Shown: in pieces, positions 12,905-36,535 of the stretch
Layout: the number at the start of each line of letters is the position of its first letter
Position numbering within the stretch: position 1 is the first letter of the stretch
Assembly (NCBI GenBank): GCA_016929635.1
Contig: JAFGIL010000010.1
Span: 829 to 64,828 of the forward strand
DNA length: 64,000 nucleotides
Reading direction: 5' to 3'
Source: Endomicrobiales bacterium
Lineage (GTDB): Bacteria; Elusimicrobiota; Endomicrobiia; Endomicrobiales; JAFGIL01
Position numbers and translations under genes: made by a program
The notes under the pieces: generated by a model
Database searches by the model: none
The model's input: only the letters and a program-made list of their open reading frames with translations
What the model was told of the DNA's origin: nothing

Positions 12905-12951
12905 GACAAAAAACAACACCGGGTGTTTATCTTGTTTAACACCCGGTGTTG
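12905..12951 (-). terminator. Rho-independent terminator of the 7,833-aa ORF
   Basis: The minus strand reads CAACACCGGGTGTT-aaacaagata-AACACCCGGTGTTG (14-bp perfect stem) followed by TTTTTTGTCTTG. It lies 27 nt after the stop codon. Confidence 0.7.
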
Positions 12952-12977: not shown

Positions 12978-15900
12978 TTAACCAGCGGCCTCGATTGCCT
13001 GAAGCAATCCCGCCCTTGTCGGCTGCTGAAGGGTTTCAATAATGTTCTGCAGTTCGATTAATGGAATGGTCTCAAAATCCCTCAGATTACTTATCAGGGC
13101 TGCAATTGCATTCCTTTTCCTCCCTGCAATACCATCGTAAACAGCCGGAGGAATTACCCCTGATTCCACGATACTGCCGCAAATACTATCTCTTGCTTCC
13201 ATCTTGAGCCTTCTTGAGTATTTGACGCTAGTATCATACATGCTAAGGTCATCCAGATTTCCTCCGAGTTTATCTCCGTCAAGAGCTAACAGATTAAAGC
13301 ATAATATTACGTATGCCTGTCTGACCTGATCTGTCTCGAAGTTGCGATTCTCCATAGTTACATAACGATGTTCAATCATGCCAAGGCAGATTCCGTGCAG
13401 ATAGTTCATTATATCGGATAAAGTCTCAGACTGTTTTGCTTTATCGTCACTGTTTTCTATAATCTCGAGAAACCTGTTCATATCCTGCTTAAACCTTTTT
13501 TCATCAACCTCAAAACCTTTGCCGAATTTAATTCCTTCTATAGCAGTTCTCAACTCCCTGGCTGTACGGCGTACAGATACCTCATAATCCGAAGGTCTTA
13601 TCACATACATCGAAACAAACTCCATAAGATCCTGGACGGCCTCAACAGAAGGAACGTTTCTTCCGTGGAAATAACGCTGTCCCTGGGCTCTCATTCTTGC
13701 CGGCCTTGTCTTTCTGTCAGGAAGCAGCGCTATTGCCTTGCTGACAGTCTCACCGAACTCCTGAATCGTCACTCTTAAACGCTCAAAGATATCGCTCTCG
13801 GGAATATCAACCCTCATTATTTTTCTCTTTGCATCGACTCCTATGGCGTTATTCAAATACCTCATCAATTCATCTTTTTTAAGCCCTGTTCTTCTTATAT
13901 CTTCCAGAGTTGGAAGCGTAAACTCAACCGATGCGTTCTCATCAACAACCCCGAAGGACTCTCCCAAGGTTTTTGTCTGATGTCTGATTATTCCCAAGTC
14001 ATTCATGCTCTGTGCTATTTCTCCGTCACTGTAAGCTTCTGCATTATAAATAAATAAAGTGACGTATTCTTCCGGAACCGAAGCTTTCTCCTGTTGTCTT
14101 GCTGTTTCATTCTGAACTTGATAATCGTTCAAGAAGACATTAATATCAGTTACCAGAATATCTCCCGATAAATAGACATCTACACCCGTAAACCCAAGAG
14201 CCATTGCGACTTTAATAGAAGAATATAAAGACCTTGCATCCTTATGATCCGAAACAGAAATGCCCAGGCTTATCCCGTCAACCTGCGGCATGCTTCTAAC
14301 CTGCTCAAGCATCCAGAATGTGTAATAGACTCTCATTGCGTTATTTTCATAATCATTGTTATAACTCCTCATTACAGATTCATCATCAATTGTATCATCC
14401 AGTTCTCTCTGCCTCCTTGTAAGAGCCAAAGCCTGATGCTTCACATATGATTTCAGATCATCTGATACTTTCTCAACATAGTTTTCGAATGCGTCTTTTT
14501 GAGCGCCTCTTAAACTGACTCTTTCTGCAAGATACTCTTCATTTATCGACATATCTGCGTTAAACATATCTTTAAACCGTACTTCACCTGCCTGGCCCTG
14601 CCATATGCCTAATGCTTTTTGTGCATAACCATACAACTGGTCAACTGACCTGATTCTTCTTACTCTTCTGTCTGCGCTCATGAGGATGTTCATATCGAAA
14701 TCCATAACAACATCTGATTTTCCCGTGGTAACGGCAGACTGGTTTCTAACCTGGGTTGTCTTAGCTCCAGCATATGTCTCCAGGAATTCTTCGGAAGTCG
14801 CATCTATTGGAACTGTCTGACTAATCCTGTCACTAGCCTTGAGTTGTTTATTTAATGCCTCATTATCCAGCGATGACTGAACGTCTTTTTCCAACCCAGC
14901 ATATAAGCTCAATAAATTAGATAATATCATCCCACCAAACTCGTGTGCTCTCAGTTTTTTCTGCTCTCTGCCATAAGCTTCGAACTCATCTATTCTGGCA
15001 AGGACTTTTTCAATCCTTTTTATACCGGCCATCTTAAACAGCACGGATATGTCCGGAGCAAATGCCTGAATCTCTCTTGCCTCATTTAATAAAGCTTCAA
15101 ATTGCCCTCTTATATCGGAAATTGATCTTTCAACTCTTCCCCAGTTACGGTCTCTTTCCAGTGTGCCAGGTCCAAGTTCTCTGTATAATGACATAGTAAA
15201 TCCTGAGCACCTGGAGTGAGCTGATTTAATCCTTTTAACGAAACCTAATACCTTAGCTCTAAAATCTGCGACAATTTGTTGCGGTGCATATCCGGAAAAA
15301 ACCATTGTGCCCATTACGCCCAAATGGTCTACTGCTTTTTCTATGTCAGGAAACCTGATATCGTTTATTTCAACACGCAATTCACCTGCTATTGCAGGAT
15401 TCATTCCTGTATAAATCGAATCAATGTTTAAGGGCTTTTTCGTCCCTTTTACAGGAAGGCCCAGATCAACAAGTATTTCATTAAAACTCTTTCCGGCTTC
15501 TACGGAGTGTGTTACTATCTGATAGCATAAAACATAGTACAGGTTTTTCATCACACCAAGGTCCGCAAATCTTTCGGATAGTTTATCAGGTACTGCTATG
15601 TGCAGTTTTACTGCAAAAGTGCCGTTTCCTGCGTCTATTGTTTCTGCAAATATCCTGAAGTTCACGGGATTCCCGTCTATTTCCGCGACTATGTACGGTA
15701 CTCTATCTGCACCAGCGGTTAACTCAACAACATCTTCTCTAGCATCCAGTTCAGATTCGGTTGTTACAGCAAACCTTATCCTGTTAATACCTGCTTTTGT
15801 TAAATCTACATCTTGTTCAGTCAGCTTTTCCTCGTTCTCACCGCCATAGGTAAATACTACTGATGTTGTCCTTTCTGCATCAGGGTAATCAGTTCTTATC

Positions 15901-18900
15901 TCGGTATATCTGTCAAACAAATCCATCACCATATTTTTTGCAAGTTTGTGAGGGAAGAAAGTTCTAATCGAATCCTTATATGCATTCCATACAGGCCCGC
16001 TGAGTCTGCTTACAGGGCCTCGTTCAATTATTGAACGCACATCCATTGGGATAATATCCTCATGCCCTAATTCCAGAGCATGGGCAAGCTCGTGTTCAAT
16101 TATTGTGTCCTGCAGCCATTCAGGAAGCCTGGACATTAATTTTTCATTTAAATATATCACATGGCTTATAATAATATTCCCTTCACCTTCCGTAGAACCC
16201 GTCAAAGTTTTTGTCTCTGCTGGCGTTAGAAATCCGAGCCTTTCGGAAGTAGCAGTTACCTCAATATTCGGATTCTTTTCTTTAAGGATTTTTTGAACAC
16301 TTTCTAATTTCGCTTTAAAATGTTCACTTCTATCTTCCGTTTCACCTCTACCCAAGGCTGCGGCCACAACAGGAAATGTCAAAGGCCCGTAAATACCAAC
16401 AACAAATATACCTACTCCAAGGAATCCTCCAACTATCGCTCCGCCAAGGCCTACGGTTAAAAGCGCTATTATTGCTCCTATATTAAAAATGCCTGCCCCG
16501 GCAATAACTCCGACAGTAAGCATTGTTATGACTCCGCTTACTATTCCGCCATAAGCAGCAGCTGTCCAGGTTTTCGCATTACTCAAGCCATACCCTAACT
16601 CGCCAAAAACACTGAATCTCTGGTATGACGCTAGAACAGGAAACGTTAATCTTGTTAAAGCCGGTAAATTAAACGATTGCCCCGCACTTCTTCCGATAAG
16701 CCATAAAAAGAATTTCTGCACCCATCCAAGCCTTTGGTATTCATCCATTCTGTGAAGTTCCATTAACTCCGCATCCAATGCAGCAAGACTTTCGAGTATT
16801 TCTAATTGACGATCTCTGAGCTCATCCATTTCATCTGCGGAAACTGCTAATCTTGGGGCTCCCGGTTTTCTTTCTTTTGCATGTGCCTTAATTACTTCTC
16901 TTGCTTCTGCCAATTCTGACCGGTTTACCTGATGCCCTTTATCTGACATCATCAATCTATTCGCTCTGGATACAATAGCGTTTGCCTCATCCAGTGTCAT
17001 TCCAACAGCGATTTCCGGCACATCTACAACTGACGGCAAAGTTGACGGCACATCCTTTACTATTTGGGCCGGAGTAGCGTGTGTCACTTTGGTTACAGAA
17101 GCGCTAAGGGATCTTCTGGGTTTTATTGTCTTTTTTGGCGCGCTCAGAGCTTCCTGGATATCGCTGAGTTCACCATATAAATTTGCTGCGCGCACATAAA
17201 GCCTTGCGCGTTCTTCCTGTATTGCTAATTGTGCTTGTGTGAGCATACCTTCGCCGGAAGAAGAAACACTTGCAATCTGAGCCCTAACATAAGCTAACCA
17301 TCTCCTGAATTGCTCAGATTTTTCTTCATTCGATAAATTGCTGACTTGCACCATTTCCGGTGACAACATCTTTGCCCGTCCGGGAACTTTACTCTGCCTG
17401 GATGATGTGGTTCCATCGCTAACCTGAGTTATGCGTATATCTCCAAACCATGCCTGGATTTCTTCAGGTGTTGTATCTGCATCGGTTATTAATCCGAATT
17501 CAAAACCAGCCAAATCTGCCCTGTAACGCCACACCCTGTATGCTCCGTCTTGAGCCAAATTTGCCAGTTCAGCACCTCTTACTCCGGAATTATTCTGTAA
17601 TCCCTGATTAGGATTAGATTGGTAACCTTCGGTAAAAATCATAAAGAACCTTACTCCCTGTGTTTCTAGCGCAGATAATCCCTGGTCAACCTGAGCTATA
17701 TTAAGCCCTGCTGAAACCGGTGCAGGTTCAGATTCCGGGATTGGCGTTGACTCAGGCGGTGCTGCAGGTTCAGCTTCTTGCGAAGATTCTTGTGCAGGTT
17801 CAGGTGGAAGCTTTTCTGTTGTCCCTTTTTCTGGGAGTAATTCTTCCTTTGCAACAGCCTTTTTCCCTCCTTCCATCGATGATTCAGGCTGTTCTACAGG
17901 TACTAATGGAGATGCAGGTTCTGCAAGACCAAGCTTGGCTTTCATAGAAGGTGTTAAAATCCAACTATATGATTCAGGATATATATATCCAACTAGAACT
18001 AGAGTTATTAACGCGGGTAGAATCAATAGCACTCCTATAGTTGTAACGAAGGATCCGGATTTACCTGTAACACCTTTTCCATCAGCAGATATACTAAATC
18101 TCTCAAATAACCATTTAGAAGATAATATTGCAAATACCATACCTATTCCAGTAAATATACCAAGAGCTACTATTGAACCTATCAATATTTTTGTAAGCGT
18201 ATTGATAACTCCAGTAGCCTGTGAAATCATACCTATTGAAACTCCCGCAGTTGATAATAATGCAATAATAGCAACAAGACCAATAACTGTTACTAGTAAA
18301 CCTATAAATCCTGCAAAGAGCACCCTGGCAACACCTCTTGATCCTCTTATATTCGATCTGCGCACATACTGACCACCCCTATTCCATTGACCTGGACGAA
18401 ACCATGGATTTCCGGTCCCGTACTCTCTAGTAGATCCACTGCACCATATTAAATAAAATAAAATCACCCCAACTAAAATTACTGGAACAGAACAAACAGC
18501 ACCAACAATGAACCTTTTAAAAGGAGTATCCATGCCAAACGCATTTAAAATGTCTACAATTGGACCCGGATATTCTTCAGAACCTGTTTCTATCTTATCT
18601 TTTGGAGGAACTTCAGCTTTTACTCTTTCTCGTTCATAGTCTATTACTCCCCTTCTCCTCTTTGCAGGTTCGGCTAAGTCTGTATCAGAATCAACACTAA
18701 CTTGAGTTATATTTCTAATTCCTTGAGTTTTGATGATATCAACTATAGCTACTAGGGAATATCCACCTATAAACAGAAATAGAAAGATGGCACCTATAAG
18801 ATGACGTTTTCCTCTAAGCTTTCTGGCAAGCCATGCAAGACCAAGAAAAAACATAAATCCAACTACACCATAGGCCATAAGCTTTCTATGCGTTTCAGAT

Positions 18901-27900: not shown

Positions 27901-30900
27901 ACATCTACGCTTTCTAACCGTTCCAGCAAATACACAATTTCAGGTCTATGATTCGGTCTTGTACCTTCTATGCTTACACCTAAACTTTCTAAGAAATCTC
28001 TTATACTCTTCGCTTTATTGCCATCATCTAAACCTTCTGCTAACGGAGAAATTAAAACCCGTAATATAATAGCTATATCATTTATAGTTAAGCGTTCTAA
28101 ATCTAAATCACTTAGTCTGCCTATTAGACTATCTACATCCGCAATAAAGGCAGTATCTAATGAAGACGAAATATCCACGGGCATAACTCCTGCATCACTT
28201 CCTTTTAGTCCCTCTAAAACACGTGGAAGTACTTTGAGAGATTCACCAACTGACAAACCTAAACCACCAACCAAATCATGGATTAGAATTAATGGTTTAT
28301 CATCATCCAAAGTTTCATCCAGTTCATCCAACATATCTCTTAAAGTTGGATCTAAATACATTTCAACATAATCTTCTACATCTTCAATAGATAATGTACC
28401 ACCATCTACTAATTTTCTGAGCCTTTCTGCTAGTGTATCTGCTGCATCTTGACTAACAAATAGTCTTTCCTCCGGGTCATGCGTAAGGTTCCATGCGGCG
28501 TGGGCTATGATGTTTGCAAGTTGGTCTATAGTCAGTCCTTTAGCAGCTGCTGCGGGATTTGTAAACTGCAGCCATTCATCTATAGATGTTAATACTAAAT
28601 CAGCTAAATCTGTAGGATTTAAACCTTTCAATGCTTTACGTTCTGCTTCTGGTAAAACCTCTTTGTCTTCTATTATGGCTCTCGCCACTTTAATCGCTTT
28701 ATCACGGGCGGTCTTACAATCTGTAAAAGTGAGTTCTCCTGCAATGTTTATTGAAGTCTGGATGAATATCATACCGCGCGTCAACGCATCCCTGTCGCTT
28801 TCCGGGCTATGTCTTGATAAAAATTCCTGGAATACCTCTCCGTTTTCACCATTTGCAATATAATCTGCCAATGCTGCTGTAACGTCATCAAGTTCCGCTA
28901 CAGGAGCAAAGCGTTCAGCTGCTTCTTTTGCATATATCTCCAACTCTTCTGGCTCTAATTCTTCTAACGAACGTCCGTACTTTAACAACACATACTCCCG
29001 TAATGTACCACGGGTAAGAATTGGCACACCAACACCTGATCCAACACGAATAGGACGGAAAAATACATCAGGTGCAACATGTCTATCATCAACTCCCAAA
29101 ACCGCTGCAGAAGCTTCTAACTCTACTTTCTGTCCAATCTCCAATTTTGCCCTTTCCAACAACTGATCAATTGTGGAAGGAGACATTGTTATTGCTGATA
29201 AATTGGAGCCCTGCCTTCGCGACAATATATTAAATAAAGGTACCGAATCCGATGCACCATCTATATGAATGCCTGGACACTCCGTACCAACTCTTTCCAA
29301 TGCAGATAAACTTACATTTTTTGACACCCCGGTTGGTGTTTCTACTACAAGAATGCGTTCTAAAATTTCTTTATCCAACGCTTCTTCAATGTCATCCAAA
29401 AAACAATATGGAGTAATGGTAACCAGTATGTTGTTTTCCGAGCAGTAATCTAAAAAAGCCATAAACTTAGATTTATTAGCTCTTAATTCAACGGGGAATT
29501 TTTTAGGGTCAAGGAATTCATCCAAGATTGTATCCCAATCAAAAGAAATCACGGCAACGGGTTTTTCCGGTATAAGCTCCCTCGAATCGTATGTCATATT
29601 AAATGCTGTGTGGGCACAGATATTGGCAAGTTGCTGCGCATTAAGATCGGAAAGATTAAGGTTCACAAGCCTTAAGCCCCTGAGTGTGTTTACAATTATC
29701 TTGATTATTAACAGAATTCTGTTTTGTTTTATTACAGTTTCTTCCTGCAGGATTGCCTTTGATATATCCCTTGCAACCCTAAACAGAGCAAAAACATTTA
29801 CAGAGTTCAGTGAGGCTGTTTCAACAAGAACTCTGTGAATAATGTCAATACCGCTTGCAAGCCTTAGGCGTTTATTAGCCCATTCGGCATCATCCATACC
29901 TTCGGGCTTGTGTGCATTGAGGAACCTATTCAATTCTGCATAGGAATTACGGCCTATTGATTTTGCAGCAACAACCGCCGATACATTCCCAAGTTCATCA
30001 AATATTTTCTCTAAATCACCCATCTCGGCTGACGGTGCATACCGCTCGGATGCTTCTTTTTCGAGTCTTTCCCGTTCTTTTGGATCTAACTCATCCCAGC
30101 TGTCCCACTTGGCTTGGCCATATTGTAATATCACGTAAGCTTTAATATTGGCTTGTGTTGTTAGTCTTTCATTGCGATACGGTTCATATACTGCATTTAC
30201 CAGCTGAGTAGCTTCTTTTGCAAAAGAAGCCTGGTTAATGTCTGTGTGGAAATAGCGCACTAATTTTCTGTATACTTTCTTCTTCGTCATTTGCGGGTTA
30301 ACTGAATTTAATATAGTATATGTTATTGATTGCGGCTTCTGCGCGACAACGGCTTGTATAACTTGTGCTATTTTAACCAACATCTCTGCATTAAAAGTTA
30401 TCCCCTCTGGATATGAATCTCTGGAAAGAGCATCCTGAATAATCCTTATTACACGCCCTAACTCTGTTAAATCTACTGCAAGTTCATTACTGCTGTATGA
30501 ACTTAGATATTTTTCAAGCTTTTTGTAAGCATCCATCTTGGGATCTTGTTCTTTCGCTTTTGGTGCTGCTTGTTTATATTTTTGCTCTGGTTCGTTAGGA
30601 ATACTTCCAAAAAGGTGTTCTAACAGATTTTTCCACTTTTCGGAAAAAGTTTCCAGAGCACCAGTAATCTCAGTGAGATTACATTGCGCAAACAAACTGG
30701 CGAAATAATCTGCAGTTGGATCTAATATATCTTTAATAAGTATCGTATCCATCTGCTGTATTAAAAATAGAATAGCAAGAGGCCTGTCCCTATCTGACAC
30801 ACCTGCTAAAAATCTATTTACCTCATAACCAAGCTTCTTGAATTGAGCAAGCTCCTGTTCGGTATAACCGGCAGTTATAGGAATCTCTAATGACATACCA

Positions 30901-33900
30901 TTAACATTAACGTGAACAGATAGTTCATAAAACGTTTCATCATGAAGAGTATAATTTCTTATGCGGGTATTCCGCGTTTTAATTGCACCCTCTTCACTAC
31001 GCAGATATAAACCTCTCAATACAATATATAATCTCTGCGCTAATTTTGCATTATCTAACTCATCCCTCCTCTCTTCAGCTTCCGCTAAATATTCAATATA
31101 CCAGGGATTAAAATATAGGTCCATTCTACTAGTTATTTCTGCCATCTGTATCGGCTCAAAAAATGCTGGGACATCAGTCTTAATAATATTTTTGATTTTC
31201 CATTTTTTCTCAATAGCTTGTAATAAAAATTCAATTTCTTCGCTTCTGCCATGCAAGACGGTTCTTGTATCTAGCAGCTTCTCAATATCATCAATGACTC
31301 CTCTTAAAACAGGAATTCTTGCAAGGTCATATCCTTTTTCCACGAAGTCAATTATCTGTGAAGCATAGGCGTCTAACTGCTGATTTCTATCCATCATCAG
31401 CAATGAAGGTACGGCCCTGAGTGCGATGTTTTTGCCTTGTTCCACCCTTGATTTATTAGTTATTACGAACTTTCCATTGCTGTATATAATAGAAGCTTCT
31501 GATATTGTTGAGAGCGAGGAATTGGGAATGCTCAATATCTGCATACCGCCACTGCTGGAAAATTCCAGAGAGGTTTCTTTCTCTCTTACTCCTACTGAAC
31601 CCACAATACTGAAAGGAATGCTTTCATCACCTGCAACAACCGTTGTTGTAAATTCCTGTCCTGTATTGGGATCAACATATCTTATTTCCAATCCGTCATC
31701 TGTATGCCTGTATTCAAGCACTGACCTCTGGCTTGCGCTGCCAAGCCAAATATGCCCTGCTGTGCCTTCAGGAATAGACGCATCAATTCCTGGCTCTATC
31801 ATAAAAGATGTCGGCGTCTGCATTAAAAGCGGTATAGCCATATTTCTTGCCATGTTAAGGCTCTGCATATTAAACCGCATATGAGTAACAACATTTGCAA
31901 CCCATATCGCGGTTTTTGTAGGCATCCAAAACAGCAACCCGCCCCAAATACCTGACCTGGTTGCGGCCATTATCATTGCCCTATTGATTTCATCGAGTCC
32001 GATTTCCCGTTCTTGTCTATAAATATCCGATAATCTATGGCCTCTATGAAAGTCTGCTACTTGTTTGTTGTTTATAGTTGGCAACAGGTTTACAGCATTC
32101 AGTGTAAGATTTTTTACTGAATCTAAAACAGGAGAAAAACCCAGCATAGTGGTTATCTGTCCTGACTCCTTGATTGCCGCGATACGAACTGCCAGCCCTA
32201 GTATAAACCACTGGCCCCTGCTCAAACCCGCATTTGCATAGTAGTTGCTGACAATATTTCCAAGGTCTCCGAATAAAAATCTGAGCACAAATCTGTTTTT
32301 CAGCCAGGAAATCGTCTCATTGTTCATAAGAGTTGCTCCCGGCCTGCTTCTTAAAACCTCTGTAGCATACGGAGATAGAGTAACACGCTGTCCATTGACA
32401 TCAACTGTAGCAGAAACCATTTCCGCTTCTTCCTCTTTCTGTTCCGCTTTTCTGGTTAATTCATGAATCTCATCCAATTGGCTTCTTCTCAGTTCCTTTA
32501 AAACGTTTAAAAACCTGGTGTGCCCGGGAATAGCAGCCTCTTTTGGAGTGGATGCTGCTATCTTGGCGTACAACGCCTCTGCTTCCGCTATTTTGTTGCT
32601 GTTGTAAAACGCACTATTAATAGCTGCCTGGCACCTTCTGTGCAATTGCAGCAGGCCCTGATAATCATCTAAAGGCGGGACTTCCCATTCTCCCAGCCTT
32701 AATGAATCGACTAACGTTCTCCTTTGGGTGGCCAGGCATTCAACAAGGAAATGAATCTGCATCCTCATCCGGCGCGGAACCTTATAGGAATACATCAGCT
32801 GTACCAGATCCCTTAACTTACCGATTTCCTTATCCAGCGGGAGGATGGCATCACCAATGTTAATACGGTCTATGTTAGACTGTATCTGGTCAATCTTGGC
32901 AAATATAAGCCCTAGCCTTTTTTTCTGGACGTCGCTAATATTTGGTATAGCATTCACTCTGTCCCTTAACGCCCTGCGTATTTTTTCAAGCACTGCGGGC
33001 ACCTGTTTTTTCCTTTTACCCACTTCCAGGTTCTGCAGTTCAGGATATTCCTCAGGCTTAGAGAATGCTTCCGATTCAACTATCAACTGGGCTATGGCAG
33101 ACTCCCATGCTTCTAAATCCTGCTGCTGTTGAGCACCCAACGATGCCGGTACAGCTCTTTCGTAATATAGATCTATTTCCAAATCTCTTATGATTTCCAT
33201 TGCTTTATAAACATCGCCATTATCAAGCGCAGCTTGAGCTTGCTTTATTTTACCTCTAAAATCCGGCTTGTAGCTGCCAAGCTCTTCGATCCATTGCGAA
33301 AGGAGACCATGCATGTTTTGAGCCGGCACTCTAGTCCTGCGGCCGGAAGCTATGGACTTCATAAGCTCTATAACAAAAGCTCTTTTCCCCGATCTGTTCA
33401 ACTTCTTCATTATTTCCCTTATTTGATTAGAATCATACTCATAAACTTCCATGCCTCCATACCACCACTGGAGGTATTCAATGTTTTCCGAGCCGCGCCA
33501 ACCGCGGTATTTATGCAAGTTTAGATATGCATGAACTGCCCACGATAATAGAGCGCCTACCATAATACTATTCGCGATAAATAAACTTGAACCAAAGCCA
33601 AATGCAAACCTCTGCCAGAATCCCCTGCTGGCAAGGACATCTGCTGAAAACGCAGCCCTTATCCAGCCAAGAATTCCTGTCCATCCTTTTTCTGCCATAA
33701 CAGCTCTGATATTTGCCCTTACATCAGGATGCAGCACAGCAAATATCCATCCTATCAACAATGGTGCGATAATGCCTGTTGGGTCAATGAATGAAGCAAC
33801 TAACGTGCCAATGGTCAAAGCAAAAGTTTCAATAATCGGAGCGCCTATAACAGGATGTACCACACGGTACTCTATTGTTTCCCATCCTGTTAATCCTTCT

Positions 33901-36479
33901 TTCCCTTTCTTATCCTTAAGATATTCAAACCTGTTTTGGCTAATATTTAGAAGCTGACCGTTTTCTGCTGCTTGCGCATTAGAAGAATATTGCTCTATCA
34001 TCCCAAAGACCTTGTCTATCTTTGCTTCTAAAGCATCGAAAGAGTGCTCCCGCACCACAAGATCAATAAATCCTGCGATGTTCTCTCTCTGGCTCGAACC
34101 TCTATCTAAACGGTCCCTGCACCTGCGTAAAATTCCTATCGGGCCACCCAGATTATTTCCCGCAAAATCGTTTATCCAGGTAATCATCTCGTTTCTCATT
34201 TCATCGCCTTCCGGAAGCACTAAAAAGGAGTTCATCGCCTGATTGCCTAGCTCCAGGAATTCCTGATATATTGAAATAAGGGTATTCATCTTCGCTTCTA
34301 ACTCCTTCTGTACAGCCGAATCATCAAGATTATCCAGTTCTGCTTCGATTTCAAGGCAAAGATCTATACACTCCTGCTTTTTGTCATCGATACGCACAAC
34401 AAGCCGTTCAAGAATTCCTTTTACTTTGTCTAATATTGGTTCATTGCTTTGGACCTGTGATTCTATTATTGAAGCAACTATCTCTTTCCCCTGTTCAGCT
34501 TTAGTAATTTTACCCGTAGCCGGATCGAAATAAACCGTAGATGTTATCTCTTCTCCATCTTTATCCAGGCATAAAACATTTATCGGGAATGTACCATTCC
34601 TTTTTCTTCCTTCAAAAAACAGCTTCGGCTTATCATGGGTGAGCTCGCCTTCCAGCGGGAAGTATTCCCAGAACTTTGCATTAACCCCTGCTACGTCACC
34701 GGCTAGCAGCATCTCCTTTAGACCTTCCACCCTGGTTAAAGCTGTTTCTGCAAATTCCGTAGCACCGCCGATTTTTTGCGCAGCTGATGCGTCAGCTGAG
34801 TTTACCAGTTCGGTTAAACTTTGAAGCGCCAATGCTTCTGACAGGAACTCCCCTTGTTTCAGCAGCAGCTCCGAATAAACGTCTTCGGCAAAACCTGTTT
34901 CCTGGGTTACATTCGGAGTGATTACAAGGTAAGGCACGCTTCTTTCCCTCATAAGCTCGCATAGTCCGGGGGTATGGAACCCTCCGGTTATCAGAACCAC
35001 AATTTCCTCAGCATTATTCAGCAGGGCTGAAATGCTGTTTTCCATTTTTGCATCAACAGCATCCTCCGGTTTTGCTGTCTCTGTTAGCTGTGTCCTATCC
35101 TCTATCCCCTGGACTCTATCCTCTATTTTGCAATTAGAAAGTATACACTCGTTTCTTTTGATGTTCACCCCGTAATACTCGTTTAATAACTCTATATGCG
35201 GTGTTATTCCTGCAAGTTTATCATTGCCGATATATTTAGCCCACAGCAGCTCGTAATCGGAAAGGTTGTTCCGGACATACTCATAGTCATCAGCTGATAT
35301 CTTGTATGAAAGGTAATCCTTGAGATACTTCGTAAACTCGATAAGGAATATGACATCACGCTCGCTCTGGCTCAACGCAAGCCTTATGCGTATCTCATTT
35401 AACAGCCTCTGCTCCTCACGAATCAGCTCAAGCGGATTTAAATTCTGGCTGGTTTCAAGGTATTTGAAAAACTGCTTTAAGTTCGGATAATTGTCCTGGA
35501 TGTCAAGATTGTAGACTTTGACTATTTTTGACAGGTAAACGTATAGAAGGTTCGGCTGGGTAAAATTCGAAGTATAGTTGGCCAGCATGTTGAATGCATT
35601 ATAAGGCAACTTCTGCTTCAGGAGGTTAAGGAAACTCTGCAGTTCCTGCCCTACTTTTTTGTATTTCATCTTGCCGCTTATTTCAAATGTTTTTGAAAAC
35701 TCAATGATATTCTGATATTTATCCACATCCACCCCGAGCTTGCCGGCCTGTGCAAGCAGATCCGAATAGTACTTATGGGGTTTCAGGTTTCCTTCTTTGT
35801 GTTTCTCAATGGTTTTAGTCAATTTTTTGTTCCTGGAATTAAAATACCTTTGTTCCAGCTGAACCAGGTCTTCATTGAGAAATTCTATCTCTGAATTAAT
35901 CTGCTTCTGTTTTTCGTTTATGGTCTTAAGCCTCAGTATGTTGTCAGTATGGAGTTTCCTGTTCTCCACGCCGACCAAAAGATCAGTTTTTCCCGATTTT
36001 ACAGAGTAGTATTCCGCACCGGTAAGTTTACCGCTGTCAATCAGGGCTTCAAGCACTTTATCTTTCAACTCTTTATCATCCACATCAGTGAGCCATGAAG
36101 TATCTATGTTGCCCGATGCGCCTTCTATATAGACATTCTTCAGGTCGTACTTCTTATCTAAAATTGAAAGGATTTTAGATATATTCCTCTGCACTTCTGG
36201 ATGACAGTGGAGGTCCTGGATGTTTACCACTACTCTCTTGCAGCGCCCGGCACCGGAAGCTTGAGACTCATCAACCAGGTCAGTCTGTGCTCTTTGCCGG
36301 GAGTCCCGTACTTCAGTGATCCTTCCTATAACGCCGGGAATAAAGAAGCTGTCAAAGATTTCCCTGAATTCCGCCGTTTCTTTTCTTTTTTCAACAACAG
36401 CCTGCAGCGGCTGGCTGACTATGAAAGAAAAAACAAAGCAGCAGGTTGTCAAAACCGCTATAAATTTTTTGATATTCAT
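12978..36479 (-). CDS. Giant multi-anchored envelope protein, 7,833 aa (uncharacterised)
   Basis: 23,502 nt without a stop in an AT-rich background. AAGGAG lies 7 nt upstream of ATG 36479. N-terminal signal peptide MNIKKFIAVLTTCCFVFSFIVSQPLQA. Six TM-helix clusters, a TPR block, HExxH, internal duplications, and an intrinsic terminator after the stop. Confidence 0.85.
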   Translation of the reverse strand: MNIKKFIAVLTTCCFVFSFIVSQPLQAVVEKRKETAEFREIFDSFFIPGVIGRITEVRDSRQRAQTDLVDESQASGAGRCKRVVVNIQDLHCHPEVQRNISKILSILDKKYDLKNVYIEGASGNIDTSWLTDVDDKELKDKVLEALIDSGKLTGAEYYSVKSGKTDLLVGVENRKLHTDNILRLKTINEKQKQINSEIEFLNEDLVQLEQRYFNSRNKKLTKTIEKHKEGNLKPHKYYSDLLAQAGKLGVDVDKYQNIIEFSKTFEISGKMKYKKVGQELQSFLNLLKQKLPYNAFNMLANYTSNFTQPNLLYVYLSKIVKVYNLDIQDNYPNLKQFFKYLETSQNLNPLELIREEQRLLNEIRIRLALSQSERDVIFLIEFTKYLKDYLSYKISADDYEYVRNNLSDYELLWAKYIGNDKLAGITPHIELLNEYYGVNIKRNECILSNCKIEDRVQGIEDRTQLTETAKPEDAVDAKMENSISALLNNAEEIVVLITGGFHTPGLCELMRERSVPYLVITPNVTQETGFAEDVYSELLLKQGEFLSEALALQSLTELVNSADASAAQKIGGATEFAETALTRVEGLKEMLLAGDVAGVNAKFWEYFPLEGELTHDKPKLFFEGRKRNGTFPINVLCLDKDGEEITSTVYFDPATGKITKAEQGKEIVASIIESQVQSNEPILDKVKGILERLVVRIDDKKQECIDLCLEIEAELDNLDDSAVQKELEAKMNTLISIYQEFLELGNQAMNSFLVLPEGDEMRNEMITWINDFAGNNLGGPIGILRRCRDRLDRGSSQRENIAGFIDLVVREHSFDALEAKIDKVFGMIEQYSSNAQAAENGQLLNISQNRFEYLKDKKGKEGLTGWETIEYRVVHPVIGAPIIETFALTIGTLVASFIDPTGIIAPLLIGWIFAVLHPDVRANIRAVMAEKGWTGILGWIRAAFSADVLASRGFWQRFAFGFGSSLFIANSIMVGALLSWAVHAYLNLHKYRGWRGSENIEYLQWWYGGMEVYEYDSNQIREIMKKLNRSGKRAFVIELMKSIASGRRTRVPAQNMHGLLSQWIEELGSYKPDFRGKIKQAQAALDNGDVYKAMEIIRDLEIDLYYERAVPASLGAQQQQDLEAWESAIAQLIVESEAFSKPEEYPELQNLEVGKRKKQVPAVLEKIRRALRDRVNAIPNISDVQKKRLGLIFAKIDQIQSNIDRINIGDAILPLDKEIGKLRDLVQLMYSYKVPRRMRMQIHFLVECLATQRRTLVDSLRLGEWEVPPLDDYQGLLQLHRRCQAAINSAFYNSNKIAEAEALYAKIAASTPKEAAIPGHTRFLNVLKELRRSQLDEIHELTRKAEQKEEEAEMVSATVDVNGQRVTLSPYATEVLRSRPGATLMNNETISWLKNRFVLRFLFGDLGNIVSNYYANAGLSRGQWFILGLAVRIAAIKESGQITTMLGFSPVLDSVKNLTLNAVNLLPTINNKQVADFHRGHRLSDIYRQEREIGLDEINRAMIMAATRSGIWGGLLFWMPTKTAIWVANVVTHMRFNMQSLNMARNMAIPLLMQTPTSFMIEPGIDASIPEGTAGHIWLGSASQRSVLEYRHTDDGLEIRYVDPNTGQEFTTTVVAGDESIPFSIVGSVGVREKETSLEFSSSGGMQILSIPNSSLSTISEASIIYSNGKFVITNKSRVEQGKNIALRAVPSLLMMDRNQQLDAYASQIIDFVEKGYDLARIPVLRGVIDDIEKLLDTRTVLHGRSEEIEFLLQAIEKKWKIKNIIKTDVPAFFEPIQMAEITSRMDLYFNPWYIEYLAEAEERRDELDNAKLAQRLYIVLRGLYLRSEEGAIKTRNTRIRNYTLHDETFYELSVHVNVNGMSLEIPITAGYTEQELAQFKKLGYEVNRFLAGVSDRDRPLAILFLIQQMDTILIKDILDPTADYFASLFAQCNLTEITGALETFSEKWKNLLEHLFGSIPNEPEQKYKQAAPKAKEQDPKMDAYKKLEKYLSSYSSNELAVDLTELGRVIRIIQDALSRDSYPEGITFNAEMLVKIAQVIQAVVAQKPQSITYTILNSVNPQMTKKKVYRKLVRYFHTDINQASFAKEATQLVNAVYEPYRNERLTTQANIKAYVILQYGQAKWDSWDELDPKERERLEKEASERYAPSAEMGDLEKIFDELGNVSAVVAAKSIGRNSYAELNRFLNAHKPEGMDDAEWANKRLRLASGIDIIHRVLVETASLNSVNVFALFRVARDISKAILQEETVIKQNRILLIIKIIVNTLRGLRLVNLNLSDLNAQQLANICAHTAFNMTYDSRELIPEKPVAVISFDWDTILDEFLDPKKFPVELRANKSKFMAFLDYCSENNILVTITPYCFLDDIEEALDKEILERILVVETPTGVSKNVSLSALERVGTECPGIHIDGASDSVPLFNILSRRQGSNLSAITMSPSTIDQLLERAKLEIGQKVELEASAAVLGVDDRHVAPDVFFRPIRVGSGVGVPILTRGTLREYVLLKYGRSLEELEPEELEIYAKEAAERFAPVAELDDVTAALADYIANGENGEVFQEFLSRHSPESDRDALTRGMIFIQTSINIAGELTFTDCKTARDKAIKVARAIIEDKEVLPEAERKALKGLNPTDLADLVLTSIDEWLQFTNPAAAAKGLTIDQLANIIAHAAWNLTHDPEERLFVSQDAADTLAERLRKLVDGGTLSIEDVEDYVEMYLDPTLRDMLDELDETLDDDKPLILIHDLVGGLGLSVGESLKVLPRVLEGLKGSDAGVMPVDISSSLDTAFIADVDSLIGRLSDLDLERLTINDIAIILRVLISPLAEGLDDGNKAKSIRDFLESLGVSIEGTRPNHRPEIVYLLERLESVDVANLQSQVVADALEEVTKTRAELLVNVSRVRSFIILIQIDPLRALRIIEESGELSGMIKMHLSNADILAKFKRALSYFDGDQENLELVNRIVTLLGFDQGLEQVALTGKRDGTEHTAPVQDEGSEINALRQRLAETGYKDVAALVDLANIYLGQQNYGSAEYVLKRLTEAAPDRIDAWSALGDCYSNLGSYDDGIECYEEAVRLSNEQSPEQKDISLLSRLGLLCLRRGTERYYRRAAEVYKELTIILPREAAVWFNLGYAYERIRNYKAALEFYSQALRLNPNNSEAYYRSGVVSYELADLAGTSETDRSRYLTNAEMFFTVALEQNPNHINALEELDRVYSRTGETDKRIEVIERLIAANPQEAGYHNALGTCYKSYDPGEALKHFRRAALLNPQLDVVWANIGDIYYELARIAGEVFRNYELAAIYKSQEHRAKLAQNRALGKVTIVSPETILAEIDSLKTLPRFLEELRQEGGNEMAVQYLRLQIYQPEIARMIRNLVKNREQTGETESLLSRLAEQDGLQVMTRELIRAITDLDDQLFIDLTELNTAPPDHMVTLKNAGVELTTSQIDEWLAQMDEWLKRHPVAPQSGDTLVATAVDSEQLMLPITERMGQWIAGKLGLDEEGTFVTVIFPAIVEFLGFLVPEVFHELHRGEGTDTTSRIVAKSLIAGTWIIFQGVTSWALMAAGISPVNLIMFNMIILCKRSLILVLSGDYDEAQRKRARGILAVNFWTLLVGGIVAGLSGNLGLALGAMYLANAVRHGIHNLVTPDARLFFGKGGASPASKLVKAGYLEKTRSDIGQDKFQPTKKLLNLIGNGIGLGVIEIGKEVYLVKVREGMLRGFSISAIFYQNKQEEYTFGVYRTTYEFSPEEVFNRVMGVVVAQSDYSRIDFNLGNVLEDDVIQESKEITAEKVREAIDRKVYSFDRETFDEVADDNLIDMIVVVVNALKGNKVNTQGFPLLKANVVEAAKAKPSGMAESAEAIELGEILGRAGDLDDIAVVEELISNGFLEVETIIEDTLFKGRRIEHNVVPTQKLKDIIGAGRLVDRGEVTVTVEKQTYTFKFDKGHVVEITARRRTISTSGYTEEFARQEKERKRQEIENRVVGEGVQGIRDLLEQGGVIIARWPSVADVVSGDFSVSILIDRPLSSDAVQRLLSYACVESYPDGIPSKYQGTPTEKVINFAWAVLREYQQPIAEYQGRPIRFFSDLFEVLRFDERFHVNFRYPNLMEFDEDSTIWGERKHGEKTSDIPSILLQEEVNLLLTIMQREVSADDVISQRMKLFARRLLEYYEGRLNKLSGRQVYEAVRIGLGETVDSDVGLQRICKGIRESQLQEVDAGLINEVQDIIRERTQAEHTAIVQALEGETVELKAGINKGLRVKVEVKKVPGDTFTRKNETAPGVSMVNFRATEDGLVLSIDLLEGFLDSASPNAIAQAIAYPLLIHIAGLSTQEAVLVENLYNEDRTRDTFLSDLDLYTINRARETGNEAVLRTILRAATGKYPVIYDSIPLGQISPAESPIAYIWRAAVSPNEVRTGMDLSLNDLTGNRVYAAGELAGDYLVDLVERNARESMVSRLIRILTATIEGGRHGGAVTAQRTVTVTHDRFVPVILEKFGIQQEGRMQAAMDHAVSAGITGFHGELVRTVLEGVDLFAFKDKYFVNYDVKVEGTDGDKYHLLEDFKDFVDLAIHFADEIATFNPSIKRVRFFMDRESDEWMLEISGPKAAYYSVLRGEKGMSRPEAETPLDPDLLGTFTISRKAFMQDANRQAFLDAIEANDVDSIGTPEAGALSSIVEPETEESAMSDVAKQIIATRDDTLREDELQDLDTNEFAKVATNLIEKGVLIVRENRVTYPSKLGSYLTWHRDSTGDITVQLEGAGYKIFLDANGDFANIQRYAQPLERRSNRTEWLNADDPGELSQVGLGAQLATPATLREYVMMEYGRLLKRFKPETKAQRQKSLQVLGMVRYLSAMMAERFNEETSAEFMAQRETKEEELVNLVFELSKALFEFANLQAGRNEYPLPTESDKAMIREGIANLFTEDPIELQINLPGRRHWLYIDLAYIDEEGSVRLEIISPELKPETDPILRAFRAIVDNKKLAQITVTKEQAAKLDAKELGRIRKEASVRFAPLAELDEVTAALADYAQNGEQGEIFQAFLSKHSPKSDKAALTRGMIFIQTSMNIAGDLLGKLTPLDSENAREIAIRVARAVIEDRDDLSELERDALEGLNPEDLADLVLASIDEWLSFTNPAIAAKGLTVEQLANIIAHTAWNITHNPNEWLLTADPFPLSPEYVSYDITNTDQVMQNLDKILLIPDKLVYLDVLQDRLSKKPTYIVPQVQGVVARYRMQLISISQFQRGILTEFGKLKAADGINYLQGVLEILLKGKTDKLKLGRKEIKAIQEFGQRTDEQFLKDVIEWLYLLTIEEELELEFENEERRGKGRTNKEKAQPLVRFLLATTSEDKLKAFLPEEAEYINAAHLRERLGQWILFLICQNYGLDLEGKSNVERLALLRNLMKRPQLNREILEFFPEDIRQDKALREGMVVLIFNVYERWVNTYQARIERKGGVLRSLDRRTGLPGSVSYQESLQNYQQAYESAGADQTAKDAAWKQFKKEIGTVAPLKETGLLAILALVPAGLLGVLALFVLPLGISTIALIGISAITGLFSWVVLSAIFMTWHKGTLGAEYDSKKGKFYRLGLLINFPFLALFLAPLAIPFVASYGLAAAIGIYLMYTLLAGAGSFGLHKYYNDSFLEYVDKHKLGKDGVVEFTDKINSAPPTVQLWLRNTERPASSEPGVGATLIASAFLTALLVGILIIGGLLVPKQEPSPQISPMETPSSSEDSMTRQGIPISEDGTTGEIEKKGEKEVDIEVPPAEMPEEEPGLPELINVGDTVEVNDLPQVREVLSNTFQALNCNTIHYTGELPDTEPIGNKDGQEGEYYEGDVDRIIEDFAKRGADTSPNAYPKYLIELKLHEHSSGKYLVEFGFKLRNPSFFSQLSETHRKLMAYGVVGFMFFLGLAWLARKLRGKRHLIGAIFLFLFIGGYSLVAIVDIIKTQGIRNITQVSVDSDTDLAEPAKRRRGVIDYERERVKAEVPPKDKIETGSEEYPGPIVDILNAFGMDTPFKRFIVGAVCSVPVILVGVILFYLIWCSGSTREYGTGNPWFRPGQWNRGGQYVRRSNIRGSRGVARVLFAGFIGLLVTVIGLVAIIALLSTAGVSIGMISQATGVINTLTKILIGSIVALGIFTGIGMVFAILSSKWLFERFSISADGKGVTGKSGSFVTTIGVLLILPALITLVLVGYIYPESYSWILTPSMKAKLGLAEPASPLVPVEQPESSMEGGKKAVAKEELLPEKGTTEKLPPEPAQESSQEAEPAAPPESTPIPESEPAPVSAGLNIAQVDQGLSALETQGVRFFMIFTEGYQSNPNQGLQNNSGVRGAELANLAQDGAYRVWRYRADLAGFEFGLITDADTTPEEIQAWFGDIRITQVSDGTTSSRQSKVPGRAKMLSPEMVQVSNLSNEEKSEQFRRWLAYVRAQIASVSSSGEGMLTQAQLAIQEERARLYVRAANLYGELSDIQEALSAPKKTIKPRRSLSASVTKVTHATPAQIVKDVPSTLPSVVDVPEIAVGMTLDEANAIVSRANRLMMSDKGHQVNRSELAEAREVIKAHAKERKPGAPRLAVSADEMDELRDRQLEILESLAALDAELMELHRMDEYQRLGWVQKFFLWLIGRSAGQSFNLPALTRLTFPVLASYQRFSVFGELGYGLSNAKTWTAAAYGGIVSGVITMLTVGVIAGAGIFNIGAIIALLTVGLGGAIVGGFLGVGIFVVGIYGPLTFPVVAAALGRGETEDRSEHFKAKLESVQKILKEKNPNIEVTATSERLGFLTPAETKTLTGSTEGEGNIIISHVIYLNEKLMSRLPEWLQDTIIEHELAHALELGHEDIIPMDVRSIIERGPVSRLSGPVWNAYKDSIRTFFPHKLAKNMVMDLFDRYTEIRTDYPDAERTTSVVFTYGGENEEKLTEQDVDLTKAGINRIRFAVTTESELDAREDVVELTAGADRVPYIVAEIDGNPVNFRIFAETIDAGNGTFAVKLHIAVPDKLSERFADLGVMKNLYYVLCYQIVTHSVEAGKSFNEILVDLGLPVKGTKKPLNIDSIYTGMNPAIAGELRVEINDIRFPDIEKAVDHLGVMGTMVFSGYAPQQIVADFRAKVLGFVKRIKSAHSRCSGFTMSLYRELGPGTLERDRNWGRVERSISDIRGQFEALLNEAREIQAFAPDISVLFKMAGIKRIEKVLARIDEFEAYGREQKKLRAHEFGGMILSNLLSLYAGLEKDVQSSLDNEALNKQLKASDRISQTVPIDATSEEFLETYAGAKTTQVRNQSAVTTGKSDVVMDFDMNILMSADRRVRRIRSVDQLYGYAQKALGIWQGQAGEVRFKDMFNADMSINEEYLAERVSLRGAQKDAFENYVEKVSDDLKSYVKHQALALTRRQRELDDTIDDESVMRSYNNDYENNAMRVYYTFWMLEQVRSMPQVDGISLGISVSDHKDARSLYSSIKVAMALGFTGVDVYLSGDILVTDINVFLNDYQVQNETARQQEKASVPEEYVTLFIYNAEAYSDGEIAQSMNDLGIIRHQTKTLGESFGVVDENASVEFTLPTLEDIRRTGLKKDELMRYLNNAIGVDAKRKIMRVDIPESDIFERLRVTIQEFGETVSKAIALLPDRKTRPARMRAQGQRYFHGRNVPSVEAVQDLMEFVSMYVIRPSDYEVSVRRTARELRTAIEGIKFGKGFEVDEKRFKQDMNRFLEIIENSDDKAKQSETLSDIMNYLHGICLGMIEHRYVTMENRNFETDQVRQAYVILCFNLLALDGDKLGGNLDDLSMYDTSVKYSRRLKMEARDSICGSIVESGVIPPAVYDGIAGRKRNAIAALISNLRDFETIPLIELQNIIETLQQPTRAGLLQAIEAAG
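15440..15880 (-). other. Module shared with the second giant ORF (copy in the 7,833-aa protein)
   Basis: VVFTYGG...AGINRIRFAVTTES...NFRIFAETIDAGNGTFAVKLHI...LVDLGLPVKG aligns with TVYFINDSG...AGFNVIRFAGYAES...AFRVWAEVIPTQNGSAINLHI...LKELGLPSRF at 56580..56980. Confidence 0.65.
16080..16094 (-). other. HExxH zinc-metallopeptidase-type motif (HELAHALELGH)
   Basis: The reverse complement reads CAC GAG CTT GCC CAT (His about 6796), within WLQDTIIEHELAHALELGHEDIIP. A third His sits at the +10 spacing seen in metzincin and WLM/SprT-like proteases. Confidence 0.5.
21060..21560 (-). repeat. Intragenic ~170-aa module, copy B
   Basis: VRFAPLAELDEVTAALADY...LTRGMIFIQTSMNIAG...DLADLVLASIDEWLSFTNPAIAAKGLTVEQLANIIAHTAWNITHN. 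DNA example: ccatgcggtatgggctatgatgtttgcgagttg here versus ccatgcggcgtgggctatgatgtttgcaagttg in copy A. Confidence 0.9.
26650..27500 (-). other. TPR repeat block (about 7-8 repeats, approximate bounds)
   Basis: Canonical TPR helices, e.g. AWSALGDCYSNLGSYDDGIECYEEAVRL, VWFNLGYAYERIRNYKAALEFYSQALRLNPNNSEAYYRSG, YHNALGTCYKSYDPGEALKHFRRAALLNP. Confidence 0.8.
28470..29015 (-). repeat. Intragenic ~170-180-aa module, copy A
   Basis: TLREYVLLKYGRS...ERFAPVAELDDVTAALADY...LTRGMIFIQTSINIAG...DLADLVLTSIDEWLQFTNPAAAAKGLTIDQLANIIAHAAWNLTHD. It matches copy B closely at both protein and DNA level. Confidence 0.9.
30170..30330 (-). other. J-domain-like segment with HTD instead of HPD
   Basis: TYTILNSVNPQMTKKKVYRKLVRYFHTDINQASFAKEATQLVNAVYEPY aligns by eye with the DnaJ J-domain consensus (DYYxILGV...IKKAYRKLAxKYHPDKN...FKEINEAYEVL). 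The HTD codons are at 30240..30248. Confidence 0.4.
34900..36260 (-). other. N-terminal domain with Tiki/ChaN/TraB-like motif pattern (approximate bounds)
   Basis: VVVNIQDLHCHPEVQ...VYIEGASG...VVLITGGFHTPGL resembles the GExH...H...E...GxxH layout of the ChaN/erythromycin-esterase/TraB (Tiki) superfamily. Motif-level resemblance only. Confidence 0.3.
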
Positions 36480-36496
36480 TTTACTTCTCCTTGAAA

Positions 36497-36535
36497 CAAA
36501 ATAAAAAACCCATCCGGTTTACTTCTGGATGGGTT
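36497..36535 (-). terminator. Intrinsic-terminator-like hairpin between the small upstream ORF and the giant ORF's RBS
   Basis: The minus strand reads AACCCATCC-agaagtaaacc-GGATGGGTT followed by TTTTTTATTTTGTTTC, then AAGGAG and ATG. The stem overlaps the stop of ORF 36535..37053. Confidence 0.6.

Follow-up and report, generated by a model that had tools for sequence, protein, structure and literature searches.

A 7,833-residue multi-pass membrane protein of an uncultivated Endomicrobiales bacterium and its family of giant proteins

We analysed a 64,000-nucleotide stretch of DNA (the window) from an uncultivated Endomicrobiales (Elusimicrobiota) bacterium (contig JAFGIL010000010.1, assembly GCA_016929635.1), which carries on its minus strand a giant open reading frame (ORF) at positions 12978 to 36479. 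The ORF encodes a protein of 7,833 residues (MBN1621174.1) that is named "tetratricopeptide repeat protein" by NCBI and has no further annotation (locus tags begin with JW871_). Our data indicate that this ORF is an intact chromosomal gene, and sequence comparison places its product in a large family of giant proteins that occurs in multiple copies in the Endomicrobiales. As the best explanation, held with somewhat better than even confidence, we propose that the protein is a membrane-threaded, possibly self-processing multi-module platform.

A preliminary description of the window, made by a model from the letters without database searches, had reported an uninterrupted ORF of 23.5 kb. The ORF indeed runs from an ATG through 7,833 sense codons to a single stop. 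Stops are as frequent in the non-coding frames as had been expected, with 217-723 of them in each of the other five frames and a longest open run of 225 codons, so that an open frame of 7,833 codons at 40% G+C cannot be due to chance. The expression signals described earlier were also found. The ribosome-binding site AAGGAG was read directly at 36487 to 36492 (minus strand), 7 nt before the ATG. The N-terminus, MNIKKFIAVLTTCCFVFSFIVSQPLQA followed by V, has the look of a cleavable Sec signal peptide (residues 1-27, 36399 to 36479, minus strand): its n-, h- and c-regions can be read directly from the sequence as KK, a 16-residue hydrophobic core and LQA ahead of V, and this signal-peptide-like start is kept across the family alignments. 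Behind the stop, folding confirmed an intrinsic terminator at 12908 to 12951 (minus strand) with a perfect 14-bp stem, a 10-nt loop and T6 (dG -26.2 kcal/mol, z = -5.5), which had not been picked up by a pattern scanner owing to its loop length.

The family is defined by its head, an N-terminal module at residues ~28-560 of the giant (34800 to 36398, minus strand). When residues 1-1200 were used as the query, 51 proteins were retrieved, all of which aligned to residues 1 to ~556 only, at 23-56% identity. Of those with a named source, all but one (from a Chlamydiota metagenome-assembled genome, MAG) come from Endomicrobiales/Elusimicrobiota, often with several in one MAG. When one genome per GTDB species was scanned with a pattern and the finds were confirmed by tblastn, 463 copies of the module were located, several per genome. 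The best 79 of these 463 loci are from Endomicrobiales/Elusimicrobiota of rumen, termite gut, groundwater and sediments, and up to six of them lie in a single assembly (below, such loci carry L numbers and database proteins P numbers). In 61 of the 79 loci the ORF exceeds the fetched flank of 10 kb, often with at least 3,860 residues, indicating that large-to-giant size is the rule. In the comparison by which the family is defined, taken over the 51 proteins and the 79 loci with alignment from residue 1, identity of the module was 35-56%. The tails of gut and rumen members fall into orthologous groups with 25-84% identity, showing that the long bodies are conserved coding sequence.

The giant's own genome holds at least five copies of the N-terminal module, plus C-terminal relatives. 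Domains carried by the paralogs include a cytidylate kinase (CMP kinase), Maf, HD, SAM methyltransferases, PGK and an amino-acid kinase, as well as a nucleotidyltransferase (PolyA_pol), HEAT, DEAD, SecA_DEAD (in two family members), ABC1/APH kinases, M48, DUF218 and PPDK_N. The family combines conserved ends with a rapidly diverging or shuffled middle. Giant genes stand in tandem in some genomes: locus L012 has a second N-terminal module at ~19075, and in L078 an ORF of 3,180 residues ending in ...LLSAA lies just upstream. In L059 (JBDRNO010000048.1, labelled Bacteroidota), the ORF with the N-terminal module stops after 281 residues, which could reflect mis-binning or a decayed copy.

All invariant residues of the head (D89, H91, Q97, E119, E156, R442, G499-G500-x-H502 and P522) are present in the giant, and D89-x-H91, E119 and H502 are invariant in alignments of 52, 31 and 38 sequences. 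An AlphaFold2 model of residues 1-580, based on 52 sequences (pLDDT 88.6, pTM 0.85), has beta-strands interleaved with helices and an all-helical insert at residues ~174-449. In a Foldseek search of this model against the PDB, EreC, Bcr135/136 and HopBA1 took ranks 1, 2, 9, 10 and 11, none of them significant (E >= 0.29). Bcr135 and HopBA1 are listed, together with ChaN, PMT and the Ere enzymes, in the TIKI superfamily, which is defined by a parallel beta-sheet core and a catalytic set of two His and two Glu (PMC6254334). In the head, D89-x-H91 follows a strand, E119 lies 28 residues past H91, and G499-G500-F-H502 follows another strand; the acid-x-His, the Glu and the second His of the catalytic set are thus all there, with Asp replacing the first Glu. 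The spacing of 28 residues from His to Glu also occurs in RRSP (H3902-E3930) and Bcr135 (H85-E113) (PMC6254334).

Based on the model and these motifs, the head is likely a member of the TIKI/Ere superfamily. The Tiki/ChaN-like N-terminal domain suspected in the preliminary description is in this respect supported, although not conclusively, by the model, the Foldseek ranks and the catalytic pattern; no sequence-profile match to TIKI members was obtained in Pfam, NCBIfam or PDB sequences. With the TIKI/TraB/PrgY/ChaN/Ere superfamily (including RRSP, PMT-C1C2 and HopBA1) the head would share a predicted parallel beta-sheet core flanked by helices and the family-invariant acid-x-His...Glu...His pattern, and with PrgY/TraB also the order of an extracytoplasmic domain followed by transmembrane (TM) helices. 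It differs from the superfamily in that its core is split by the helical insert of ~270 residues, in the Asp at the first Glu position, in the lack of a profile match to any Pfam or PDB member, and in being joined to thousands of further residues.

At its other end, the giant has a conserved C-terminal region (residues ~6840-7740; 13260 to 15962, minus strand), which is common to a second giant ORF in the window and to P0058, P0059 and P0060. Searches with the C-terminal ~1,000 residues matched these three proteins, namely P0058 (6,502 residues), P0060 (3,040 residues) and P0059 (3,489 residues, from Ca. Liberimonas magnetica). P0058 and P0060 are probably from the same MAG as the giant, their accessions falling in the same MBN162xxxx range; P0058 shares the C-terminal region while the N-terminal module is missing at its annotated start. 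A search with a profile of the C-terminal alignment retrieved no proteins though members exist, probably because of the tool's candidate-selection limit. The structural model of the region has a pLDDT of 51.5, with scores of 60-90 for a beta/alpha core at residues ~7256-7563. In Foldseek this core matched GH84 O-GlcNAcase and other TIM barrels (E from 3.5e-4, on a low-confidence model), and no conserved Asp-Asp catalytic pair of the GH84 type was found in a 5-sequence alignment. We regard the core only tentatively as TIM-barrel-like.

The protein closes with ...GLLQAIEAAG (12981 to 13010, minus strand), apparently a variant of a family ending, ...[ILV]L[SAGE]AA-COOH, that carries one Gly beyond the AA. 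The ...AA ending occurs in 10 of the 18 locus ORFs with a visible stop and in 7 database proteins, and in none of 28 other ORFs of the window that were checked (0/28). The full ...[ILV]L[SAGE]AA form closes loci L012, L015, L026, L039, L040, L054, L062, L063, L065 and L071 and proteins P0012, P0028, P0034, P0037, P0039, P0041, P0044 and P0058-P0060. The ...LxAA tail of the family resembles the end of the ssrA degron, and by this analogy the ...AA tail may control turnover; the window has no tRNA or tmRNA gene, and thus no ssrA tag to compare with the tail. The second giant ORF (55092 to 64000, minus strand; at least 2,968 residues visible, its N-terminus lying beyond the window) ends in ...LHQAITSAA. 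It has PPDK_N at residues 1174-1454 of the listed ORF of 2,956 residues and no strongly hydrophobic segments in its visible part. Judged from the shared C-terminal sequence, it is of the same superfamily as the first giant.

A small gene stands directly upstream of the giant gene (36535 to 37053, minus strand). Its product of 172 residues has no Pfam match; it begins like a signal peptide and has a C-terminal TM helix, with the motif LLPRGAID behind it. Of the 72 related loci whose upstream sequence is long enough, 57 have an ORF of 120-230 residues on the same strand that ends at most 450 nt upstream of the head, at a distance of 40-170 nt in most loci. The two-helix layout with a basic motif (LPRG/LPRS/LTRRN/LARS) was found in 49 of 58 small upstream ORFs, including that of the window; the conserved small partner proteins are 160-210 residues long. 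By phmmer, the small protein of the window matched the upstream ORFs of L060 (E = 6e-4) and L046 (E = 9e-3), and P0059 carries the small ORF as an in-frame fusion with its head. The 55 nt between the small gene and the giant's ATG (36480-36534) are taken up by a 12-bp hairpin with a T-run (36506 to 36536, minus strand) and the ribosome-binding site, leaving no room for a separate promoter. The arrangement therefore suggests that the two genes are probably co-transcribed, with the hairpin attenuating read-through. In one gut/rumen subfamily (L055, positions 6373-8470, and 17 other loci), a secreted YD-repeat-like protein of ~700 residues is encoded upstream on the same strand, and two or three more small membrane-protein genes are likewise conserved ahead of the giant gene. 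The YD-repeat-like protein and the other upstream genes of this rumen type are absent from the window.

Hydropathy analysis supports a genuine, very large multi-pass membrane protein, as had been proposed, with about 20 TM-like segments in five clusters, all coordinates being on the minus strand: cluster 1 at residues 876-987 (33519 to 33854), cluster 2 with 4-5 helices at residues 3487-3627 (25599 to 26021), cluster 3 with 5 helices at residues 5486-5679 (19443 to 20024), cluster 4 with 6 helices at residues 5867-6163 (17991 to 18881) and cluster 5 with 2-3 helices at residues 6656-6709 (16353 to 16514). The preliminary description had counted six hydrophobic clusters; the sixth (nt 31866-32300, residues 1394-1538) is weakly hydrophobic (KD19 < 1.4) and was not upheld. 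The two Pro/Glu-rich linkers that it had noted are present, the first, also rich in Ser, at residues ~5686-5750 (19230 to 19424, minus strand) and the second at residues ~6190-6260 (17700 to 17912, minus strand). From sequence features, the six-anchor topology proposed earlier, in which domains alternate between cytoplasm and periplasm, is plausible. For clusters 3 and 4, the numbers of K and R beside the helices agree with a model that has both linkers outside, and the most consistent placement puts the linkers and the adjoining blocks (residues 5680-5866 and 6164-6655) on the outer side.

Following the fifth TM cluster, 99 residues after the last TM helix, lies the motif HELAHALELGH (residues 6796-6806), in a minimal zincin-like module at residues ~6765-6830 (15990 to 16187, minus strand). 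The HExxHxxxxxH island recognized in the preliminary description gains further support from the family, since 51 HExxH motifs occur in 61 long family ORFs compared to 1.9 expected from composition. Thirty-seven of the 51 lie at most 200 residues downstream of a TM helix and share the context ...N..LL..F..HELRH.... In most members the motif is at residues ~800-870, after a single TM helix just past the head; family members have one or more such modules, about 100-190 residues after a TM helix. A profile of 23 HExxH segments had as its top PDB matches MJ1213 (E = 0.024), projannalysin (E = 0.18) and M48 (E = 0.23), which are sub-significant but coherent. A 171-residue tile of the giant itself matched the Pfam families YgjP-like (E = 0.003) and SprT-like (E = 0.006), both under the gathering cut-offs. 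The module is thus similar to the minigluzincins and the M48/M56 peptidases (MJ1213/projannalysin, HtpX/Ste24 and BlaR1) in being a short HExxH module right after TM helices, in the ...IY(I/L)N...L...hh-HELxH context ahead of the motif and in its top profile matches; it differs from them in that its scores are below significance, that the third zinc ligand is not confidently identified and that it sits inside a giant protein.

TM clusters 1-3 each contain an E / FxxxH / HxxxN triad in the order and spacing of CPBP/Rce1 proteases: E884 / FAVLH917 / H983AYLN987 in cluster 1, IVEFL / FHELH / HGIHN in cluster 2 and LKETG / FMTWH / HKYYN in cluster 3. We take these triads to correspond to the four catalytic residues of the Rce1/CPBP intramembrane proteases. 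Five triads were observed in the giant against 0.17 expected in shuffled sequences, and two of the five lie inside a soluble domain (domain X, see below). At the same distance after its head, the paralog P0045 has the canonical EExxxR / FxxxH / HxxxN set; it is named CPBP by NCBI and reaches only E = 0.23 with Pfam Rce1-like. For the giant's clusters, Pfam on the excised clusters and a PDB profile search gave no match (PF02517, Rce1 structure), and iterative HMM searches started with the canonical module of P0045 were negative, as was pairwise phmmer. The giant also differs from CPBP/Rce1 in that motif 1 is degenerate (E-T, without Arg), and its clusters have no detectable sequence similarity to one another. 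On these sequence data, CPBP-like TM clusters are a lead only. In P0058 (MBN1622597.1), 29 TM-like segments were counted along with no fewer than four CPBP-like triads; two of the triads belong to a near-identical internal duplication (residues ~1282-1398 and 2769-2884). As for the J-like segment of the preliminary description, the sole HPD (residue 917) falls within a TM helix of cluster 1 and no DnaJ model was matched; a J domain was rejected.

Between its conserved ends, the giant is almost wholly dark to profile libraries. About 95% of it has no Pfam family match, and a scan with Pfam of 52 tiles of 300 residues added nothing significant beyond the tetratricopeptide repeat (TPR) block, which profile scans had placed at residues ~2980-3278 (26646 to 27542, minus strand), in agreement with the preliminary description. 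A PEPcase match in one tile (E = 0.0019) fails correction for 52 tiles and was discarded. The body is mostly non-repetitive, as had been stated, except for domain X, a helical domain of ~175 residues that occurs in three copies (residues 2127-2303, 2504-2676 and 4972-5145; 29571 to 30101, 28452 to 28970 and 21045 to 21566, respectively, minus strand) and also in P0006, to which copy 1 relates, and P0059. Copies 2 and 3 share 69% protein identity (E = 1e-72) and 76.6% DNA identity, and their dN/dS of 0.22 indicates selection on the protein. All three copies would lie on one side of the membrane if the helix number of cluster 2 is even. A domain-X pattern scan of metagenomes came back empty. No homolog of residues 985-2980 was found among 5.8 billion proteins, GTDB genomes and JGI metagenomes yielded no close relative of the last 5,000 residues, and tblastn and phmmer found nothing for the body in the 79 family loci. 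Of the orthologs for which a search of MAG databases had been suggested, none of full length was found; the head and the C-terminal ~1,000 residues have relatives, and a homolog of the body was detected only in the giant's own MAG and in one further MAG.

Together, these features are best accommodated by the membrane-threaded platform named at the outset, which would be analogous to the giants of Omnitrophota (see below). After export by Sec, the head would lie on the outer side of the inner membrane and work there as a hydrolase, either an esterase or a peptidase. The chain would be stitched through the membrane repeatedly by its TM clusters, leaving large soluble blocks on both faces, with both Pro/Glu linkers and their adjacent blocks outside, and built-in protease-like modules may cut the chain or its partners. 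As the paralogs carry nucleotide- and ATP-dependent enzymes, it can be argued that much of the body faces the cytoplasm. Since protease-like modules recur (TIKI-like, zincin and perhaps CPBP-like), processing of the protein itself or of partners is the most economical mechanistic idea. Envelope remodelling and interaction with other cells are candidate roles.

Several points weigh against the membrane-threaded platform. The TIKI assignment stands on weak Foldseek scores and motifs, the zincin matches are sub-threshold after counting 52 tiles, and the CPBP-like reading of the TM clusters was confirmed by no profile search. The topology was read from hydropathy and charge only, and around clusters 1 and 2 the charge bias gives conflicting signals. 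The body (residues 600-6800) is almost without detectable homologs in the databases searched. Synteny, to which the preliminary description had looked, extends among the family loci to the small upstream gene, beyond which the neighbourhood is not conserved. Proteolytic processing of the giant is something that we infer from its sequence only. A bolder version, in which the family represents a so far unrecognised bacterial way to make envelope machinery as a single membrane-threaded polyprotein, appears improbable to us: dozens of modules would be inserted with the aid of the small partner and cut by the protein's own proteases, the ...AA tail would govern turnover, and the middle would be interchangeable cargo for cell interaction. 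The proteases of this version, a TIKI-like one outside and zincin and CPBP-like ones at the membrane, share in the same low probability.

The closest known kind, compared by published description, appears to be the signal-peptide-plus-TM giants of Omnitrophota. Besides a signal peptide and numerous TM helices, these contain repeats of the TPR/HEAT type and scattered enzyme domains, including divergent SecA_DEAD, PPDK and glycolytic domains and N-terminal peptidase domains, and they show extreme sequence divergence against a conserved architecture (bioRxiv 10.1101/2023.11.21.568195; 10.64898/2026.06.07.730766). In size, proteins of at least 10,000 residues have been classed as 'large' and those of at least 30,000 residues as 'giant' (West-Roberts et al., bioRxiv 10.1101/2023.11.21.568195), and Elusimicrobia have been found to be rich in very large proteins (bioRxiv 10.1101/2023.11.21.568195; 10.64898/2026.06.07.730766; PMC11573180). 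Like the Omnitrophota giants ('Archaeovorin'-type; West-Roberts et al. 2023; Nielsen & Lui 2026), the Endomicrobiales giant is a single huge ORF in the small genome of an uncultivated bacterium, and West-Roberts et al. put the host in the PVC supergroup. Also shared are a signal peptide with clustered TM helices (by hydropathy in our case), TPR/HEAT scaffolds, a highly divergent and mostly unannotated length, peptidase-like N-terminal domains near the signal peptide, and relatives with scattered enzyme domains of cytoplasmic type, PPDK occurring in the window's second giant ORF and SecA_DEAD, methyltransferases and a glycolytic enzyme in paralogs.

Different from the Omnitrophota giants, the protein described here belongs to another phylum and, with 7,833 residues, is under both the 10,000- and the 30,000-residue thresholds. 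Its head is TIKI/Ere-like rather than C39 or S8, it has no SecA_DEAD, and no type II secretion or pilus genes are near it. The head, the ...LxAA tail and the small upstream gene are unreported in Omnitrophota. The statements of the preliminary description that the protein fits no familiar giant-protein class and is the window's best candidate for an undescribed system were thus overstated, given that the Omnitrophota giants have been described, that the protein is in NCBI nr and that its family has hundreds of members. In the literature we found no published description of the Endomicrobiales family, its head, its tail or its partner gene, and the family-level architecture is apparently undescribed so far.

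Among the alternatives, we considered modular effector delivery by the logic of MARTX or polymorphic toxins, in which the ends and TM clusters serve export, the middle is cargo for a host, prey or neighbour cell, and internal proteases release it. What the giant has in common with MARTX toxins is a working logic: conserved termini on either side of a variable array of unrelated modules, combined with protease activity of its own. The variable, shuffled middle between conserved ends in many paralogs per genome would suit such delivery, as would the protease-like modules, the YD-repeat-like secreted protein upstream in 18 related loci, and paralog cargo made of nucleotide- and ATP-dependent enzymes that are functional only inside a cell. 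The TIKI fold occurs in the toxin effectors RRSP, PMT and HopBA1 (PMC6254334), the Omnitrophota giants have been interpreted as attack or attachment proteins, and published surveys tie huge bacterial proteins to host association. However, no type I, II, V or VI secretion system (T1SS, T2SS, T5SS, T6SS) genes adjoin the giant gene, whose neighbours are lipopolysaccharide (LPS)-core and SecDF genes, and about 20 strongly hydrophobic helices favour a stable stay in the membrane of the producer. Moreover, no known toxin or immunity domain was detected in profile scans, and the family is also present in lineages of unknown lifestyle. MARTX toxins differ further by their RTX or glycine-rich repeats, their cysteine protease domain and their T1SS genes, none of which the giant has, and by lacking its many genuine TM helices. 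On balance we consider effector delivery unlikely.

It is also conceivable, though we hold it to be rather doubtful, that the giant is an unprocessed scaffold or mega-enzyme anchored in the membrane, with the head alone outside and the bulk acting in one piece as an organising platform on the cytoplasmic face. In that case, other substrates would be the target of the HExxH and TIKI-like modules (in HtpX-like quality control or BlaR1-like signalling), and the ...AA tail would set turnover. Typical family members, with a single TM helix at residues ~640-700 and an HExxH ~130 residues later, have the layout of sensor-proteases (sensor outside, zincin inside), their paralog enzymes are of cytoplasmic type, and their ...LxAA end is like that of the ssrA degron. 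In the giant, however, the zincin is near the C-terminus after five TM clusters and not beside the head, the Pro/Glu linkers after TM clusters suggest substantial outside parts, and no regulator or substrate gene is linked.

An artefact, be it a chimera mis-assembled from several family genes or a decaying pseudogene still open by chance, is very improbable. The source is a short-read MAG contig, several paralogs in the genome might mislead an assembler, and full length is confirmed by no ortholog. In addition, the third-codon-position G+C content (GC3) is 0.44-0.50 at both conserved ends of the gene and 0.21-0.29 across residues ~2500-6500, compared to a mean of 0.395 +/- 0.034 in neighbouring genes; it is also low in the second giant ORF (0.26-0.35), and the body may have evolved faster or under weaker constraint, or may have another origin, either of which could account for the low values in the middle. 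Against an artefact, a frame of 7,833 codons at this G+C content neither arises nor persists by chance, no 20-mers are repeated within the gene, and its most similar internal segments, the domain X copies, are just 76.6% identical in DNA and under purifying selection. Both ends, with the N-terminal module from residue 1 and the shared C-terminal region and tail, and the small gene upstream fit the family layout, and relatives of 3,000-6,500 residues and longer are common.

A conventional giant protein (repeat adhesin, S-layer protein or NRPS/PKS), for which size, signal peptide and an envelope-biogenesis neighbourhood might speak, is effectively refuted, because profile scans, down to tiles of 300 residues and in line with the preliminary description, revealed no Ig, cadherin, RTX, beta-helix, condensation, adenylation or KS domain, the sole repeats are the TPR block and the three helical-domain copies, and TM helices are many.

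Giant genes occupy several percent of these small genomes. The giants of Endomicrobiales now form one recognisable family, marked by a head that is conserved and probably catalytic, by a zincin module and a tail motif, and by a partner gene, offering residues for mutation, modules for expression and a two-gene cassette for searching, and allowing direct comparison with the Omnitrophota giants. Endomicrobium proavitum is a cultured member of the Endomicrobiales. If it carries the family, how multi-thousand-residue membrane proteins are made, inserted and used could become testable in the laboratory.

The giant gene is surrounded by ordinary chromosomal genes that share its strand, among them genes for a Kdo transferase, three heptosyltransferases, an O-antigen-ligase-like protein, glycosyltransferases, two sulfatase-domain membrane proteins, SecD/SecF and Tgt. 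Between the two sulfatase-domain membrane-protein genes lies an ORF for an IS200-like (Y1_Tnp) transposase (39875-40570, minus strand) with a GC3 of 0.29.

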